DNA from: Escherichia coli
GTDB taxonomy: Bacteria; Pseudomonadota; Gammaproteobacteria; Enterobacterales; Enterobacteriaceae
NCBI RefSeq assembly: GCF_011045215.1
Contig: NZ_CP049201.1
Length of the DNA: 64,000 nucleotides
Reading direction: 5' to 3' (one strand)
Under the pieces are notes generated by a model. That model had not been told where the DNA came from. It ran no database searches and saw nothing but the letters and a program-made list of their open reading frames with translations. The translations under genes and the position numbers were made by a program. Below are positions 4,689 through 34,996 of this stretch, in pieces (positions within the stretch are counted from its first letter, which is position 1; the number at the start of each line of letters is the position of its first letter).

Positions 4689-5087
4689 ATGAAGTGGTGT
4701 TTTCGTTTTCTGAAACGTCTTGTTTCTCTGCCGCACACAATGCTGTTACGCCTGTGGCAGGCCGTGTTCTCACTGTGTCTGTTGCTCTGGATGAGTATGC
4801 AACCGGCGCTGGCTGATCTGCCCACCATGGAACCTCCGTCCTCCGGCGGTGGCAGCGGTCTGTTCGGGCAGATTAAAGGGTATTCCCAGGACGGTGTGGT
4901 GCTGGGTGGTCTGATTATCTCCGCCATTGGGTTTATTGTCGTGGCGAATTCCGCAATTTCCACGTTTGCGGGAGTCCAGAAAGGACAAAAAACCTGGACG
5001 GAGTTTGGGGCCATTGTGGTGGTGGGGGTGATTCTGCTGGTTGCGGTGATCTGGCTGCTGACCAAATCGGCTTCCATCATTCTGTAA
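4689..5087 (+). CDS. Pilin-like (VirB2/TraA-like) membrane protein, 132 aa
   Basis: Signal-like N-terminus (MQPALA-DLP) followed by two hydrophobic segments; position within the T4SS block. Start taken at ATG 4689 rather than the ORF-track start. Confidence 0.55.
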   Translation: MKWCFRFLKRLVSLPHTMLLRLWQAVFSLCLLLWMSMQPALADLPTMEPPSSGGGSGLFGQIKGYSQDGVVLGGLIISAIGFIVVANSAISTFAGVQKGQKTWTEFGAIVVVGVILLVAVIWLLTKSASIIL

Positions 5088-5098
5088 GGAATACGCCC

Positions 5099-5464
5099 AT
5101 GCAGACCATTCATTTTTTACCCGATCGCCTTAATGTGGAGCCGGCCGTGTTCCGGGGCTTCACCACGCCGGAGCTGGGGCTGGCCGCACTGAGCGGTGCC
5201 GCTCTCGGCCTGCTCTGGCCGTTACCGCTGCTTCCGCTGACCGGCTGGGTGATGATCCCGACCGGGATGATGGTCACGCCGTTGCTGCTGATCTGGTTCG
5301 GCGGAAGCTGGATCACCCGGATGAAACGCGGCAAACCGGATAACTGGCTCTGGCAGCGGCTGGAGGAGAAAAAGTGTCGGGCCGGTATGGGGCGTTCATC
5401 GCTGATTATGGTGGCGCAGGGCTGGTCCCTGCGCCGTACCCGGCCGGTAAGGAGAGTTTTATGA
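5099..5464 (+). CDS. ICE membrane protein (121 aa)
   Basis: RBS AAGGA upstream; hydrophobic N-terminal half; overlaps the next gene start. Confidence 0.55.
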   Translation: MQTIHFLPDRLNVEPAVFRGFTTPELGLAALSGAALGLLWPLPLLPLTGWVMIPTGMMVTPLLLIWFGGSWITRMKRGKPDNWLWQRLEEKKCRAGMGRSSLIMVAQGWSLRRTRPVRRVL

Positions 5465-28863: not shown

Positions 28864-31089
28864 ATGTCTAAGCCGGAAAACGGCCAACAGCTGCCCGCCA
28901 TCTGTTGGCCGGTGCCTAAAAATAACCGGGGCGGGGAGTTCAGTAATCTCGAGGAGATGTTGGCGCATCTGGAGGGCGAGGCCACCGGGCACTGGCTGAT
29001 TGGCCGTAATGGTATGTGGCACGGGGGAATTCATATCACGGATATCACGACTCCGTGGTGTGCGCTCAGCGGTCAGTCGATGAATGAGGCGGTGGATTTT
29101 CCTGTGCCGTTTAAGGGAGAGCAGCCCGTGCGCTGCATGGCGGATGGTGAGGTGGTGGCGTACCGGATAAACCGGGATTCTCTCAGCGTGCCGTGGTACT
29201 GGGGGGATTTACACTACTCCGGGTCTTTTGTACTCATTCGCCATCGTATTCAGCCAGGGGAAACGGCAGAGAGCGGGCTGACCTTTTACACCCTGTATAT
29301 GCACCTCGCGCCCTGGCTGGCTTACCCGGAGCAGGACAGTACGGCGTTTAAGGTCGCAGACAGACAGTATCTGAATGCGTATGCGGACGCGTCCCGGCAG
29401 TGGGTGGTGGCAGAGTTGCCACCCGGTACACGTGTGATATGGGACAAAGCGGTAAGTGCAGACACCATGACAGGGAGCAACGGTCGGCAGTATGCGCGCG
29501 TTACGCTGGCGGAGCCGGTGACGGGCAGGATGAACCTGAACGCCGGAGACCGGGTATGGACAGTATGCGATAAAGGGAATCTGGTTCCGGTTCGTGACAG
29601 TATCATCCGTCCGGCGTGGTGGTCGCCGTTCCTGCCGCCGTCACGCGAAACGGTACAGTTTGATACGGTGGTGTGTCCGACACCTTACCCGATTAAAGCC
29701 GGTGCCCCGGTGGGGCATCTGGGCTATTTTCAGGTACCCACGGATAACGGGCATGAAAAACGCTATCAGGTGCATATCGAATGCCTGACAACGGACGACC
29801 TGCCGCGCTTCCTGAGCAACCCGGAAGGTGTGGGGCGTGACACTCCCGCCTTTGCCCGTTGTCCGAAGGATATACCGGTGTATCTGAAATATACGGACGG
29901 AGAAATACACAAGAGCCTGGTAACCACGGAGAGCGAAACGGTGATGGCGCTGTCAGGTCAGGTGGTGACGGACAAAGAGGGTAAACGCTACTGGTCGGGG
30001 GGAGGGGTATCACGCGGACTGCTGGCGGAGTCAGATGTGCAGTTGTTATCCAGGTATGACCTGGCTGACCGGGGTTTTGAGGCCACGGAGGATAACCCGG
30101 TGAGCTTTGACCATCTCGACGGAAAGAGACAGCCGAAGGGGCTGGTGAGGACGATTTTTGAGCGTTTTTTCAACGTGGCGGATAATGACGGTAAGCTCTA
30201 CAGCAAAATAGTGGCATTCAACTACCGGCAGCTGCTGGACCAGATTGATGACGCCAAATCCCCCCGGTATAACCCGGAACTGTACCGGCGCGCGGTACAG
30301 AACCCGTCAATGCGTGAGCATCTGTATCGTTTGTGCGTGAAACATCCCAGCGAGTGGTATTACTCGTCGGAGTCTTCGGTATGGAAAGCATTTTTTACGC
30401 CCCAACTGAAAAGAGACGCCACGGAGTGGTACGCCTACAGTATGAAATTTTTGACGGATCTCCGCTGGATGTACCGTGTGGCCGGAATGGTGGAAAATCC
30501 GTGGCATATGCACCCACTGGTATTTCTTGATGCTATTAATGATATAGGTATGACTCTCGATGAAGCCAGAGTTCGGGCATTTATGAGAATGATTCGAGTT
30601 GGCGAAGGGACTGTTGGTGAGGTTGGGTATGAAACATTGTTTGGTAAGCAGTCATTCATAAAAGATTATCATAAAGATTTTAGTGATCACCCGAACATAA
30701 TAATTACTAGAGGTACATTAAAGTCTTCTGCGGCTGGAGCATATCAAGTAATGGGTTATACATGGAATGATCCTAACATGTTGTTTTATCGCAAAAAATA
30801 TGGGATCGTGGATTTTTCTCCGAAATCACAAGATGAGTTTTGTGTGCTAATCCTTAAATATAAAAGGAAAGGGGCTTTAAAACTTATCATTGATGGTGAC
30901 ATTGATGGGGCTTTAGATATTTTGAGTTACGAATGGGCAAGTCTTCCCCCTGCCAGATACCCTCAACCAACCAAGAGTAAGAGTGAGGTTATGTCCTTAT
31001 ACAATAAGTATTTATTAGAAGAGCTCTTAGGGGAGACAGATCTTCACCTGCCAATCGGCTACATAAAACAAGTTTATAATGGTGTGTAA
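28864..31089 (+). CDS. Multidomain cell-wall hydrolase-like protein (741 aa) with C-terminal lambda-lysozyme-like (GH104-type lytic transglycosylase) domain
   Basis: C-terminal residues ~570-741 align by eye with recalled phage lambda R motifs (VGEGT..GYETLF, DFSDHP, AAGAYQVMGYTW, DFSPKSQDEF, KGALKLIIDGDIDGAL, EWASLP). N-terminal region has an M23-like H-x-G motif (WHGGIHITD), unconfirmed. GC drops sharply near 30540. Confidence 0.7.
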   Translation: MSKPENGQQLPAICWPVPKNNRGGEFSNLEEMLAHLEGEATGHWLIGRNGMWHGGIHITDITTPWCALSGQSMNEAVDFPVPFKGEQPVRCMADGEVVAYRINRDSLSVPWYWGDLHYSGSFVLIRHRIQPGETAESGLTFYTLYMHLAPWLAYPEQDSTAFKVADRQYLNAYADASRQWVVAELPPGTRVIWDKAVSADTMTGSNGRQYARVTLAEPVTGRMNLNAGDRVWTVCDKGNLVPVRDSIIRPAWWSPFLPPSRETVQFDTVVCPTPYPIKAGAPVGHLGYFQVPTDNGHEKRYQVHIECLTTDDLPRFLSNPEGVGRDTPAFARCPKDIPVYLKYTDGEIHKSLVTTESETVMALSGQVVTDKEGKRYWSGGGVSRGLLAESDVQLLSRYDLADRGFEATEDNPVSFDHLDGKRQPKGLVRTIFERFFNVADNDGKLYSKIVAFNYRQLLDQIDDAKSPRYNPELYRRAVQNPSMREHLYRLCVKHPSEWYYSSESSVWKAFFTPQLKRDATEWYAYSMKFLTDLRWMYRVAGMVENPWHMHPLVFLDAINDIGMTLDEARVRAFMRMIRVGEGTVGEVGYETLFGKQSFIKDYHKDFSDHPNIIITRGTLKSSAAGAYQVMGYTWNDPNMLFYRKKYGIVDFSPKSQDEFCVLILKYKRKGALKLIIDGDIDGALDILSYEWASLPPARYPQPTKSKSEVMSLYNKYLLEELLGETDLHLPIGYIKQVYNGV

Positions 31090-31527
31090 ATGAAAAATAT
31101 ATTCCTTATATTGATATTTGTATCATCATTTACTTATGCTGGTTCTGATTTTGGAACTTGGGGAACATCATGTGATGATAATGGGTTCATTCTTTCATTA
31201 AAAGAAGATTCATCTCCATTTGTTGTTAGTGATAATCAGATAGTTGTATCCATACATTCAAGAAGGATTAACCATAAAGTTATTGATGTTTTTTTTGATG
31301 ATACATTAGATCTTGGGATAGGAGGCATGGGGTTTAACTGGGGGGATGTTGATAAAACCAAAAAAATAGCCGAGTTAACATATTCTGAAAATAATAAATG
31401 GCTGATGAAATGGTTTGGTTTTTGGGATGCAAAAAAAAAGACACGTTTTTGGGTGAAAGAGCCTGATTTTATCCAAACATACGCAAAAAATAACGTCATA
31501 ACATTGATTAAATGCGAAGAACAGTGA
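31090..31527 (+). CDS. Secreted small protein (145 aa), candidate immunity protein for the upstream hydrolase
   Basis: ATG directly after the upstream stop (TAAATG); signal peptide MKNIFLILIFVSSFTYA; AT-rich like the hydrolase C-terminus. Confidence 0.5.
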   Translation: MKNIFLILIFVSSFTYAGSDFGTWGTSCDDNGFILSLKEDSSPFVVSDNQIVVSIHSRRINHKVIDVFFDDTLDLGIGGMGFNWGDVDKTKKIAELTYSENNKWLMKWFGFWDAKKKTRFWVKEPDFIQTYAKNNVITLIKCEEQ

Positions 31528-31582
31528 TGGTTTGACTGCAATGGCTAAATTGAGGCAGCAATAATTTCAGGAAAACAAAAAT

Positions 31583-31760
31583 GATCTTCTTGAGATCCTT
31601 TTTTCTGAGAGTAGTTTCTTGTCCTGTAAATGAAAAAACGCCGGAAGGCGGGTTGGTTCGGGTTCGTTGATCTACCAAATCTTTGAAGCTGGGCGGTAAC
31701 AGGACTCTATGTGGGAGACAGTTACCAATACATTATAGTACTTCCCAGTAATCTGCTGAT
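31583..31760. other. Remnant resembling a ColE1/p15A-type plasmid origin (RNA I/RNA II region)
   Basis: GATCTTCTTGAGATCC, CTGTAAATGAAAAAACGCCGGAAGGCGGG and GATCTACCAAATCTTTGAAGCTGGGCGGTAACAGG parallel recalled p15A/pBR322 ori strings in the same order; diverged, not verified by alignment. Confidence 0.4.
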
Positions 31761-31849
31761 CAGACCGGGCCAGCCAGAGATGCAGGTCGGTGATGATCAA
31801 CCGTCGTATACGAATCTGTATGGTGTTGAGCTGCTGTCCCGATTTAGTA

Positions 31850-32590
31850 TCAGACTGGATGTAGTGAATCTGTTTTTCCGGACGAGCATTTCATGGTGAA
31901 TTGTCGTGGTGTTATATTAAAGTGTTGTCTGAAAAGATAGACAAAGTAGGATGTACTGGAATAGCCACATTTTTCAGCAACGTGTTTCACTGAGTATTTC
32001 TGTTCCAGTAAGTTTCTGGCTGAAAACATTCGTACTTCGAGTAAAATTTTACTGAAACATGTGTTTTCAGACAGAAGTTTTTTCTTTATCAGACTTTCAC
32101 TCATATATACATATTCAGATATATCGCGCAACTTCCATTGTCGTGATATATCTGACAGTAATATGTTTCGTACTTTTCCTGAAAAAGTTGGGATGCCAGA
32201 TGAAAGGAAGTTTATTAAAGCGGGGCGGGTATTAAAAATTGACAATAACGAGAAACAGACAGCTTCTCTGAATTCCGGATGGATATGATTTTCATAATTT
32301 ATATTGTTTATGAGTTCTGACAACACTTCCGGGTAGGCAAAACATTTTTTCAGAAAATGAACAGGCCCGTCGTAGGTTGGTTTTTCCCCTGTATGGCGAT
32401 GGTGTATATAATGGTTTACTGTATCTTCATTCAGAGGTACTTCAGTGAATTTATCTGAAAATGTAAGAAAGCTTGTCATCAAAGATGGATTAACAAGAAG
32501 AATATCGCCATAATTTAATATTAATACATCATTAAAAAAACGGAAATTAAATGATCTTTTTATCAGTATGAAGGAGCAGATGATAGTCAT
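31850..32590 (-). CDS. AraC-family transcriptional regulator, AppY/EnvY-like
   Basis: C-terminal HTH region (ERQWKLRDISEYVYMSESLIKKKL ... VAEKCGYSSTSYFVYLFRQHFNITP) closely parallels recalled E. coli AppY ([24 protein letters not shown] ... [25 protein letters not shown]). AT-rich. Confidence 0.7.
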   Translation of the reverse strand: MTIICSFILIKRSFNFRFFNDVLILNYGDILLVNPSLMTSFLTFSDKFTEVPLNEDTVNHYIHHRHTGEKPTYDGPVHFLKKCFAYPEVLSELINNINYENHIHPEFREAVCFSLLSIFNTRPALINFLSSGIPTFSGKVRNILLSDISRQWKLRDISEYVYMSESLIKKKLLSENTCFSKILLEVRMFSARNLLEQKYSVKHVAEKCGYSSTSYFVYLFRQHFNITPRQFTMKCSSGKTDSLHPV

Positions 32591-32873
32591 AATTCTTTGC
32601 GCTGTTACAGTTTTTTATTTATGTAAGTATGGATGAAGGGAAAAAAAAGGAAAAATATTTTGTTTTTTTGTGATTGCTGTCACGTAATAAATAAAAAGCA
32701 ATTGATTATATTGCTGTATTGTGCTGTAAAGAAGAGTTAAGCTCTGTCTGGTACTGATTTATTCCGGGGGACGGAGGGGCATGGCAGATGAAGGGATGAA
32801 CAGGGACTTTTTGTTTAATTCGTTGACAGCAACAGTCATAAGAGAAAGCAACAATTCACATATGGGGCAGTTT

Positions 32874-33569
32874 ATGAAAACTATCTTCATAGCAGAGCCT
32901 GTCGTGACGGCAGGTAACAGTAACAGGCTGATTGCGGTGGAGATTCTGAGCCGATTTTATTCTGTTAACGGAAAACAACTTCCTACCGTGAAAACGCTGA
33001 ATATGTTTACAGCAGAGATGAAAATTGATTTGCTGGAATTACAGATAAGAAAAATAATAAGTAAAGCTTCTTTTTTTAGTAAGCATAATATACTGTGTTC
33101 CCTTAACGTCGATTATGATACATGTCAGTATATATACAGAAATAAAAATATTCAGGATATAATAAAGTCATATGATTTTATTGTTCTTGAAATTTCTGAA
33201 ACATACCCGGTCATAAAGGCTGATGATGCAATAATTCCTTTTCTCATTAATCTGTCAGAACATATCTGGCTGGATGATTTAGGGAGTGGTAACAGTACAA
33301 TACATACGTTGATAAGAAATAAATTCCAGGCAGTGAAACTTGACAAAAATTTTTTTCAAATACATAGTATGAAACCGCATTTTGCTGCATTAATAGACAA
33401 TATAAAAAGATTATGCCCTCTGGTTATTGCCGAGGGTGTTGAAAACAAGAATTATCTGCATGCTGCTTCAGGTGCTGGTTTATGGGGCGTTCAGGGATAT
33501 TATTTTCCATCAGTACCGCTTGAGGATATTCATCAGATAAAGTTGGATTTTTCTGAGAACATCAGCTGA
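32874..33569 (+). CDS. EAL-domain protein, YdiV-like (degenerate EAL; EIL instead of EAL)
   Basis: EAL-domain motifs (EILSRF, DDLGSGNST, KLDK, AEGVE, QGYYF); DDLGSGNSTIHTLIRNKFQAVKLDKNFFQ parallels recalled YdiV LGAGNSTMKAVFDGLFTRVMLDKSFIQ. Start chosen at ATG 32874; ORF-track start is 32781. Confidence 0.65.
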   Translation: MKTIFIAEPVVTAGNSNRLIAVEILSRFYSVNGKQLPTVKTLNMFTAEMKIDLLELQIRKIISKASFFSKHNILCSLNVDYDTCQYIYRNKNIQDIIKSYDFIVLEISETYPVIKADDAIIPFLINLSEHIWLDDLGSGNSTIHTLIRNKFQAVKLDKNFFQIHSMKPHFAALIDNIKRLCPLVIAEGVENKNYLHAASGAGLWGVQGYYFPSVPLEDIHQIKLDFSENIS

Positions 33570-33803
33570 TGAGTCTGTCATACTTTTTCTTCCCGGGTAT
33601 ATCCGGGCTGTGTTTAAATATAATAGTCATAAGAAAACTGGTTATTATATTTTCAGGTGAATTTGTTTACATGTTCTGATCGGGACTCGCTTTCAGATTG
33701 CAGGGAGTAATAAAAAGTACTATCACTGCGTATTCCGTTCTACTCTATCACGGATTGGCCCAAACTGTGTCGATTCAGATGCCATTTTGCACTATCACTT
33801 ATT

Positions 33804-34538
33804 ATGAGCTGTTTTTGTATTCATTTTAGCAGCCATCTCCATGATGGTATTGACAGTGGCTGTCCCGGTAAGAAATATGATATACACCGACCATTAAATA
33901 TGCTGGCGTTAAGCTGGCATAATACTTCTGGTCGCTATTCACTGGGGGGAAGTTATCAGAAAGATGATTCCGTGCAAATTTTAGGGGAATTAAATAAAAA
34001 ATTTAAGATCCGTGAAAGAGATTCTGCGAAAAGTCAGTTAAAATTTTTCTACGCTGAACTTGAGGGTTTTAATAAAGAAAAAAAGAGAAGGGCTGGGGAA
34101 CCTGATGATACCTATCTCCTTTCCGGACAGATATCATTTAATACACCTGATTTTGGAGCATTTGTCAGTGCGGGATATATTAATCATGCAATATCAGGAA
34201 CAAATGTAGATACCGATCGTTCTTATGTATATTCTCTGAGTATAGATCGTAATAAAGAACAAATGTACTCTTTTTAGACAGGATTTACATATAACATCAC
34301 ACCAGAATTAAGTGCAATGATGACCCATGGTTATGAATCCAGTCGTAAAGATGTAGAAATACAGGGGGCATGTATTTTGGGAGCAATGACTTACAATATC
34401 AATAATGGACCTAATATATTTCTTTCTGCAGACAGATGCAGAGAAAAAAGAGATGGCAGCCGTTTTGGTGATCGTCTTAATTATTGGGATGTTAAATTAA
34501 GTATTAGGTATGATATATATATATATGATTCTCTGTAA
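33804..34538 (+). pseudogene. Interrupted ORF: two same-frame ORFs separated by a single in-frame TAG at 34278-34280; no signal peptide
   Basis: Seen directly: 33804..34277 and 34317..34538 are in the same frame and read through apart from one amber codon; alternating hydrophobic pattern suggests a beta-barrel protein remnant. Confidence 0.35.
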
Positions 34539-34996
34539 AGAGGCAGATGCTGAATCCATTCACCCTGTAGTCCATGATTTCGAATCTGGTAGGGTGTATT
34601 TATAACTGACAATATAATGAGGTAGTTCCGGTTTCTCTTGTGTTTATAAATTTCTCATGTCTTTGTTAAGCAACTGTTTGTATTATTCTGATTGACTTAT
34701 TTTCACTGGTGTTAAGACCACAGGTATTGTCAGTATTCGAACAGTATTTCACGAAATTCTTATACAGTATTGCACGGTTTTCCGGACGTTTAAACTTCAA
34801 ATGGTTAAACTGGCTTCACAACAGGAGCTTCTGTTGTCTGTATTGTTCGAAAATACGGGGATACCGTATTTTCTGAGTTATATTATACAATCTTGTTTTA
34901 TAAAATACCCCTGTGCGAATGAACACACAGGGGTATTTTATATTTCAGTTTTTCACCATAGAGTATGAACAGATTGCAAATATAATCCCGACAATA

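Follow-up and report, generated by a model that had tools for sequence, protein, structure and literature searches.

This analysis concerns a 64,000-nucleotide stretch of Escherichia coli DNA (RefSeq assembly GCF_011045215.1, contig NZ_CP049201.1; hereafter the window) and, within it, two adjacent genes carried by an integrative and conjugative element (ICE). One encodes a regulator of the AraC family and the other a small protein with an EAL domain. An earlier reading of the letters alone (the sequence-only reading) described the genes as divergent, and their open reading frames (ORFs) do lie back to back on opposite strands (Table 1). As set out below, it is moderately probable that the pair is a mobile cassette in which the AraC-family protein controls a catalytically competent, stand-alone phosphodiesterase of cyclic di-GMP (c-di-GMP).

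The Pfam EAL model matches residues 39-242 of the 262-amino-acid (aa) protein as called (8.9e-20). Its best sequence matches in the PDB are STM1697 (1.2e-31, 113 bits) and YdiV (2e-18, 70 bits), followed by YahA/PdeL (1e-7). The AlphaFold model, built from 48 homologues, is a TIM-barrel (predicted local distance difference test score 95.9) that resembles YdiV and STM1697 (template modelling score 0.83-0.86) more than it does active EAL domains (about 0.73-0.79). By sequence and by predicted fold, the nearest characterised or solved relatives of this small stand-alone EAL protein are thus the anti-FlhD4C2 factors STM1697 and YdiV, and to this extent the likening to YdiV in the sequence-only reading was apt. 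The best NCBIfam model is PdeH (PRK11596; 8e-24, 84 bits), which stays under its 190-bit equivalog cutoff. An identical sequence is on record as WP_250848377.1, an 'EAL domain-containing protein', and among the top representatives listed from a search of 1.84 billion proteins, most have a single domain and a length of 219-266 aa. Relatives with named sources occur in Klebsiella, Enterobacter, Citrobacter, Pantoea, Hafnia and Brenneria. With its single EAL domain, its length of 231 or 262 aa and its EAL-only nearest kin, the protein joins the recognised stand-alone EAL subclass of enterobacteria as a new and so far uncharacterised member. Reviews place PdeH, YdiV and STM1697 together in this subclass, which includes active and inactive proteins and has known horizontally transferred members (PMC9275015, PMC10333796).

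Both protein lengths are in use among public annotations. The starts of the homologues all align with ATG 32874, and Met32 of the ORF aligns with residue 1 of STM1697. In the lineage of the window, 93 extra in-frame bases lie between a conserved GGAGG-type Shine-Dalgarno sequence and ATG 32874, and owing to this stretch ATG 32781 falls right behind the Shine-Dalgarno. The alignments suggest that the true start may be ATG 32874, which gives a protein of 231 aa.

The sequence-only reading called the protein a degenerate EAL protein with EIL in place of EAL. Ten positions (E and R of ExLxR, N, both E of ExxE, DD, K, the first E of EGVE, and Q) were scored in an alignment of 84 sequences, which comprised stand-alone EAL representatives from the 1.84-billion-protein search together with K-12 YdiV, PdeH and PdeL and with STM1697. 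The window protein scores 10/10, as does active PdeL; active PdeH, which has an ELL motif and is without the R, scores 9/10, STM1697 6/10 and YdiV 4/10. The ExLxR motif, called determinative for c-di-GMP binding in a review (PMC10333796), is intact in the window protein, which has L and R at the positions that are I and H in YdiV and STM1697 (E-x-I-x-H). The motif reads A-V-E-I-L-S-R-F. EIL is therefore present as described, but it is a tolerated, ordinary variant and no sign of degeneracy, since the ten catalytic residues are intact and active PdeH itself carries ELL. The term degenerate has to be dropped: every canonical residue is kept, as in PdeL, and the alignment to YdiV and to active EAL proteins returned a complete catalytic set and not one of the YdiV type. 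Because the residues for metal binding, substrate binding and catalysis form a complete set, unlike in YdiV and STM1697, the protein is most likely an active phosphodiesterase.

The nearest relatives of the window protein (P0002-P0007, P0009 and P0015) are accessory E. coli proteins at 43-57% identity, annotated merely as 'EAL domain-containing protein', and all of them score 10/10. In the alignment of this nine-sequence clade, 53 of the 231 columns are invariant and include the ten catalytic positions (hypergeometric P = 2e-7). This invariance over deep divergence indicates past purifying selection, as judged from the alignment. In a neighbour-joining tree the clade stands apart from the mostly degenerate STM1697 clade and from the degenerate YdiV clade. 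It is monophyletic in 92 of 100 bootstraps and never groups specifically with STM1697, YdiV or PdeH; in the bootstrap trees, the smallest clade that also contains STM1697 takes in a median of 38.5 of the 45 leaves. The small sister groups (P0034, P0024, P0019, P0026 and P0027) all score 10/10 as well. The tree, whose deeper branching lacks resolution, thus places the clade among intact stand-alone EAL proteins, and the description of the protein as a YdiV paralogue finds no support in it, as the protein falls in neither the YdiV nor the STM1697 clade.

A profile search of species-representative genomes with the clade alignment yielded no member of the clade and matched only distant EAL domains, of rumen Firmicutes and the like; this suggests that the clade is absent from such genomes, a result that hinges on the search patterns. 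Named c-di-GMP phosphodiesterases were also considered as identities. PdeU1, PdeU2 and PdeU3 were ruled out, as their motifs (EVLIR and DDFGTGYAT) and their transmembrane or tnpM-type architectures differ. For PdeX and PdeY/SfaY, the listed reference residues mismatch the window protein and its clade in both numberings, which is a weak positional test. Separately, Salmonella phage SJ1 (OQ595196.1, H118) carries a 55%-identical EAL homologue annotated 'ydiV: putative anti-FlhC(2)FlhD(4) factor'. Since the catalytic set of the clade is intact, this label is probably over-specific, and it counsels caution against automatic 'ydiV' annotation of this EAL family.

The partner gene encodes a protein with a C-terminal double helix-turn-helix AraC DNA-binding domain (Pfam HTH_18, 8.6e-13; HTH_AraC, 3.4e-9), for which the best match among solved structures is Rns (1e-23). 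By blastp it is 38.5% identical to YdeO (169 bits), 40% to GadW, 30% to AppY and, at the C-terminus only, 37% to EnvY; in the DNA-binding half the identities are 52%, 60%, 45% and 42%, respectively. The best NCBIfam model is YdeO, matched over its full length at 184 bits and under the 348-bit cutoff, and the GadX model reaches 91.5 bits against a cutoff of 500. No equivalog cutoff was reached that would indicate orthology to a named K-12 member (YdeO, GadW, GadX, AppY or EnvY). The sequence-only reading had named the regulator AppY/EnvY-like, which holds at the level of the subgroup, but GadW and YdeO are closer. Both cassette proteins also match phage protein families of no assigned function, the regulator phrog_1450 (208 bits) and the EAL protein phrog_32988 (294 bits).

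The region between the two genes is AT-rich. An RNA fold of 32660-32890 gave z = -2.56, and an Rfam scan of 31500-35100 found no riboswitch or leader family, only a chance-level NsiR1 match (E = 0.72). A 24-nt inverted repeat was also seen here (32674-32697 and 32809-32832), with arms that are 75% complementary and 111 nt apart. It flanks the Shine-Dalgarno and ATG 32781 and extends into the 93-bp in-frame stretch (32781-32873) that is missing from homologous cassettes; if the true start is ATG 32874, the repeat could be a leader structure. At the other end of the gene, a hairpin directly after the stop codon suggests that the EAL gene is transcribed as a predicted monocistronic unit.

The window begins within the ICE, so that the left end of the element lies outside it. 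The other end (40534..43498) consists of a relaxase gene, a tyrosine recombinase gene and tRNA-Phe, an arrangement that matches strain F2_407_2_2. Left of the tRNA, the conjugation genes include TraD and a TraC-type ATPase, and models TIGR03754, 03747, 03749, 03752, 03744, 03756 and 03755 each exceed their curated cutoff in the window. With conjugation genes of this family, a MobH/PFGI-1 relaxase and an integrase beside a tRNA gene, the element is of the PFGI-1/ICEclc/pKLC102 type. Right of tRNA-Phe lies core E. coli chromosome (dsbD to groEL), more than 99% identical to many genomes. The segment from ~31 to 35 kb has a GC content of 35%, against 55-60% in the backbone. Related ICEs at the same tRNA have the backbone ends in common and differ in their cargo between a methylase gene and a UvrD-like helicase gene, a slot that appears to be a cargo hot spot. 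Given the ICE setting, the low GC content and the differing cargo of related ICEs, the view of the pair as island cargo is confirmed.

Table 1 Features of the AraC-EAL cassette and of the surrounding ICE cargo and ICE end.
Feature	Coordinates	Strand	Basis or remark
AraC/XylS-family regulator, 246 aa, GadW/YdeO-like, intact	31850..32590	-	Pfam
AT-rich divergent intergenic (putative promoter) region, 190 bp	32591..32780	.	reaches 32873 as leader if start is 32874
Stand-alone EAL-domain protein, 262 aa as called (231 aa from ATG 32874)	32781..33569	+	
E-I-L-S-R	32940-32954	+	EAL gene; EIL codons 32940-32948
DD	33273-33278	+	EAL gene
EGVE	33432-33443	+	EAL gene
QG	33492-33497	+	EAL gene
Terminator-like GC hairpin	33592..33607	+	just 3' of EAL stop; consensus scan, weak T-tail
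UidC-like porin gene remnants, two broken ORFs	33804..34538	+	NCBIfam UidC 5e-35, model positions 199-329 of 421 only
AIDA-I/MisL-type autotransporter, 850 aa	34997-37549	-	TIGR01414 beta-barrel 1.7e-119
PFGI-1-class relaxase	40534-42180		TIGR03760 206.8 vs 161.4 cutoff
Tyrosine recombinase	42238-43230		XerC/D-like integrase, adjoins tRNA-Phe
tRNA-Phe	43423-43498		ARAGORN; attachment site, pheU of E. coli

The autotransporter gene that the sequence-only reading noted nearby is indeed present, convergent with the EAL gene and 1.4 kb from it; the AIDA-I, MisL and ECSE_1600 models all score under their cutoffs on its product. A functional link between the two does not follow, as the case for it is adjacency alone, with debris in between, and the adjacency is absent at the closest relative locus (RM8082), where the neighbours are different. 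The debris comprises the porin gene remnants and an IS66 tnpA-like remnant (~34789-34846), which show the cargo to be a patchwork of decayed pieces. Elsewhere, copies of the cassette often have an adhesin or autotransporter gene close by (eatA, a chaperone-usher operon, mrk), but virulence plasmids are rich in these.

Several other cargo genes were noted. In the same slot of the window, a 741-aa ORF (28864-31089) has no Pfam or NCBIfam match, but at the C-terminus it resembles phage endolysin/lysozyme families (phrog_90, 1.5e-25). It is directly followed by a 145-aa ORF (31090-31527) with a hydrophobic, signal-peptide-like N-terminus apparent by eye; from sequence the two look like a peptidoglycan-hydrolase effector and its immunity protein. 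The sister ICEs (L102, which is strain F2_407_2_2, and H101-H115) carry genes for an inverse autotransporter, AAA/DUF4435 proteins and SAVED/ThiF proteins resembling a cyclic-oligonucleotide-based anti-phage signalling system (CBASS). PADLOC found no match to a defence system.

Mapping by tblastn places divergent AraC-EAL pairs in at least four further contexts, with both proteins 48-58% identical to those of the window. These are the enterotoxigenic E. coli (ETEC) plasmid pETEC_74, directly beside eatA (WP_001119661.1 and WP_000452091.1); plasmid pDEC9B-1; P1-like phage-plasmids, between darB-side genes and ref, cre and c1; and a position beside a chaperone-usher operon in L099-L101. The recurring cassettes have just the two genes in common, and their flanks differ. 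A homologue is found in about 190 of 5426 complete E. coli genomes and is almost always plasmid-borne; 334 plasmids in PLSDB have one. On plasmid p39 (L013, NZ_CP023379.1), a truncated EAL-clade fragment (5007-5381) was seen just upstream of mrkABCD (type 3 fimbriae), behind IS1.

The pairing is not obligatory, in that the AraC homologues nearest to that of the window (64-70% identity) have no EAL neighbour. One of them, P0165 (64% identical), was found on the E. coli contigs L094-L097, also lacking an EAL partner. At these loci an EvgS/EvgA-like pair of hybrid kinase and response regulator and a MotA-like gene lie a few kb off. In K-12, EvgAS controls YdeO, which this neighbourhood recalls.

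As a proposed mechanism, the AraC protein would activate the shared AT-rich divergent promoter region, which is probably silenced by H-NS, and the window protein, as a phosphodiesterase, would then lower c-di-GMP. A drop in c-di-GMP lifts the YcgR brake on the flagella of E. coli and lessens curli and cellulose. The predicted outcome is thus relief of the YcgR brake and damping of curli and cellulose, a pro-motility and anti-biofilm effect of opposite sign to that of YdiV, conferred by a two-gene regulatory cassette that is probably horizontally mobile and is carried as cargo of a PFGI-1/ICEclc-type ICE at pheU. Observed here are which domains the two proteins have, a residue set that is intact and invariant in the clade, the position of this clade in the tree, the conserved pairing of the genes and their island setting; beyond this, we infer that the EAL protein is enzymatically active, that the AraC protein controls its gene, and what the phenotype would be. 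As a phosphodiesterase is expected to lower c-di-GMP, the cassette is expected to favour motility and not to repress it. Repression through FlhDC, as the sequence-only reading proposed, is the less likely direction given the intact catalytic set, the separate clade and the changed FlhD contacts described below.

Several observations weigh against an active, AraC-controlled phosphodiesterase. Its best sequence and fold matches, STM1697 and YdiV, are inactive proteins. Loop 6 of the window protein (DDLGSGNST) is closer to those of YdiV (NLGAGNST) and STM1697 (DLGVGNAT) than to the canonical sequence (DDFGTGYSS, or DFG(T/A)GYSS in general form), although active PdeH has DDFGTGMAN; this is the main sequence-level caveat on activity. 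A promoter scan of the intergenic region found 12 sites, against 14.2 expected from shuffled sequences, so no promoter was identified, and an alignment of the intergenic regions across cassettes is too diverged to show a common AraC site. The frequent decay of EAL copies and of their AraC partner points to weak selection.

The matches to STM1697 and YdiV would be accounted for if the protein were an anti-FlhD4C2 factor of their type, which binds FlhD, represses class II flagellar genes without hydrolysis and couples loss of motility to adhesin expression. Such a factor is expected to retain neither catalytic residues nor their invariance, if catalysis is dispensable, and yet both are found in the clade; ExLxR, in contrast to the E-x-I-x-H of YdiV and STM1697, is intact, and the protein falls outside both inactive clades. 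The FlhD interface gives a mixed picture. The structure of STM1697 with FlhD defines eleven contacts (V115, L116, L136, V147, F160, K167, L172, L173, K175, H176 and Y180), and the mutants F160A/L173A and L172A/L173A/H176A lose FlhD binding (PMC5622320). Four of the eleven contacts are identical in the window protein (L136, F160, K167 and L173), which include the central hydrophobic pair F160 and L173, and loop 6 is YdiV-like; one phage homologue has even been auto-annotated 'ydiV'. L172, K175, H176 and Y180, however, are changed to A, D, N and L, V115/L116 fall in a gap, and only two of the four key YdiV residues (F155, F168, F181 and A184) are identical. F160 is not diagnostic of FlhD binding, as active PdeL has it too. 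Taken together, these observations make a YdiV/STM1697-type factor quite unlikely.

A scaffold like that of YdiV and STM1697 joined with an intact active site is what would be expected of a dual-function 'trigger', that is, an active phosphodiesterase that also binds FlhD or the cognate AraC protein in a c-di-GMP-dependent manner and would represent an ancestral-like stage between PdeH and YdiV/STM1697. Several EAL proteins are known to target transcription factors, among them YdiV and STM1697 (FlhD), BluF (BluR), PdeR (MlrA/DgcM) and PdeL. That the EAL gene has stayed linked to a single AraC lineage over ~45% sequence divergence and on several mobile elements is consistent with this, but it is equally explained by simple transcriptional control, and the nearest AraC homologues have no EAL partner; a trigger is therefore unlikely. 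A more specific form, in which the pairing is a protein-level circuit and an intact, ancestral-like YdiV/STM1697 relative acts as a c-di-GMP-sensing enzyme that binds the GadW-like AraC protein or FlhD, is very unlikely. Decay of the cassette raises another alternative, namely that the pair is H-NS-silenced, hitch-hiking DNA with no role in the host, intact only through recent acquisition. The commonest >90% variant of the EAL protein (P0001) carries a frameshift, is without EGVE and QG and shows DN for DD, and many members of the EAL cluster are short. As for the AraC gene, RM8082 has a truncated copy, L002 and L003 have frameshifted ones, and in L007 and L011 it is disrupted by insertion sequence (IS) elements (IS5). 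No more than 4 records of the 5426 complete genomes carry the close type (>95%), and the cassette is of low GC content and adjoins pseudogene remnants. On the other hand, both genes are intact and full length in the window, the catalytic residues are invariant over deep divergence and intact pairs persist on pETEC_74, pDEC9B-1 and L099-L101. Silent or decaying cargo is thus improbable, and an AraC-controlled phosphodiesterase is the reading that we prefer.

If the protein is indeed an active phosphodiesterase, the cassette would add one more mobile-element c-di-GMP turnover gene that retunes the motility/biofilm switch of the host, a theme that is already documented. Were the protein-level circuit true, ICEs, ETEC plasmids and P1-like phage-plasmids would couple host c-di-GMP to acid-resistance-type, adhesin or flagellar regulons. 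The analysis defines a recurrent two-gene AraC-EAL cassette that ICEs have in common with ETEC virulence plasmids and P1-like phage-plasmids. It also shows that an accessory clade of E. coli combines a YdiV/STM1697-like scaffold with a fully intact active site, and this clade is useful for tracing the evolution of anti-FlhDC proteins from enzymes.

Compared with known systems, the regulator has the full-length layout of GadW, YdeO, AppY and EnvY, an N-terminal domain followed by two helix-turn-helix motifs. Its N-terminal half is ~30% identical to that of YdeO, and similarity to that of AppY is barely detectable; unlike these K-12 regulators, it is encoded on a mobile element. The plasmid and phage-plasmid cassettes are likewise divergent two-gene units with proteins of similar lengths (234 and 226 aa) and an EAL protein that scores 10/10, although they are without the 93-bp stretch between the Shine-Dalgarno and the conserved start. 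PdeH, like the window protein, is a stand-alone EAL protein with conserved catalytic residues, but the two are distant (distance rank 64 of 83 aligned sequences), and PdeH is a core gene of the flagellar regulon, unlike the island-borne gene studied here. The EAL-like anti-FlhD4C2 factors STM1697 (Salmonella Typhimurium; PDB 5HXG) and YdiV/RflP/STM1344 (PDB 3TLQ, 4ES4) resemble it in their single EAL domain of ~230 aa, their compact scaffold and their loop 6 (GxGN(S/A)T). The window protein differs from both in that it keeps E-x-L-x-R, ExxE, DD and EGVE, belongs to a separate clade and is encoded on a mobile element beside an AraC gene, and from STM1697 in that the polar FlhD contacts (K175 and H176) are not conserved.

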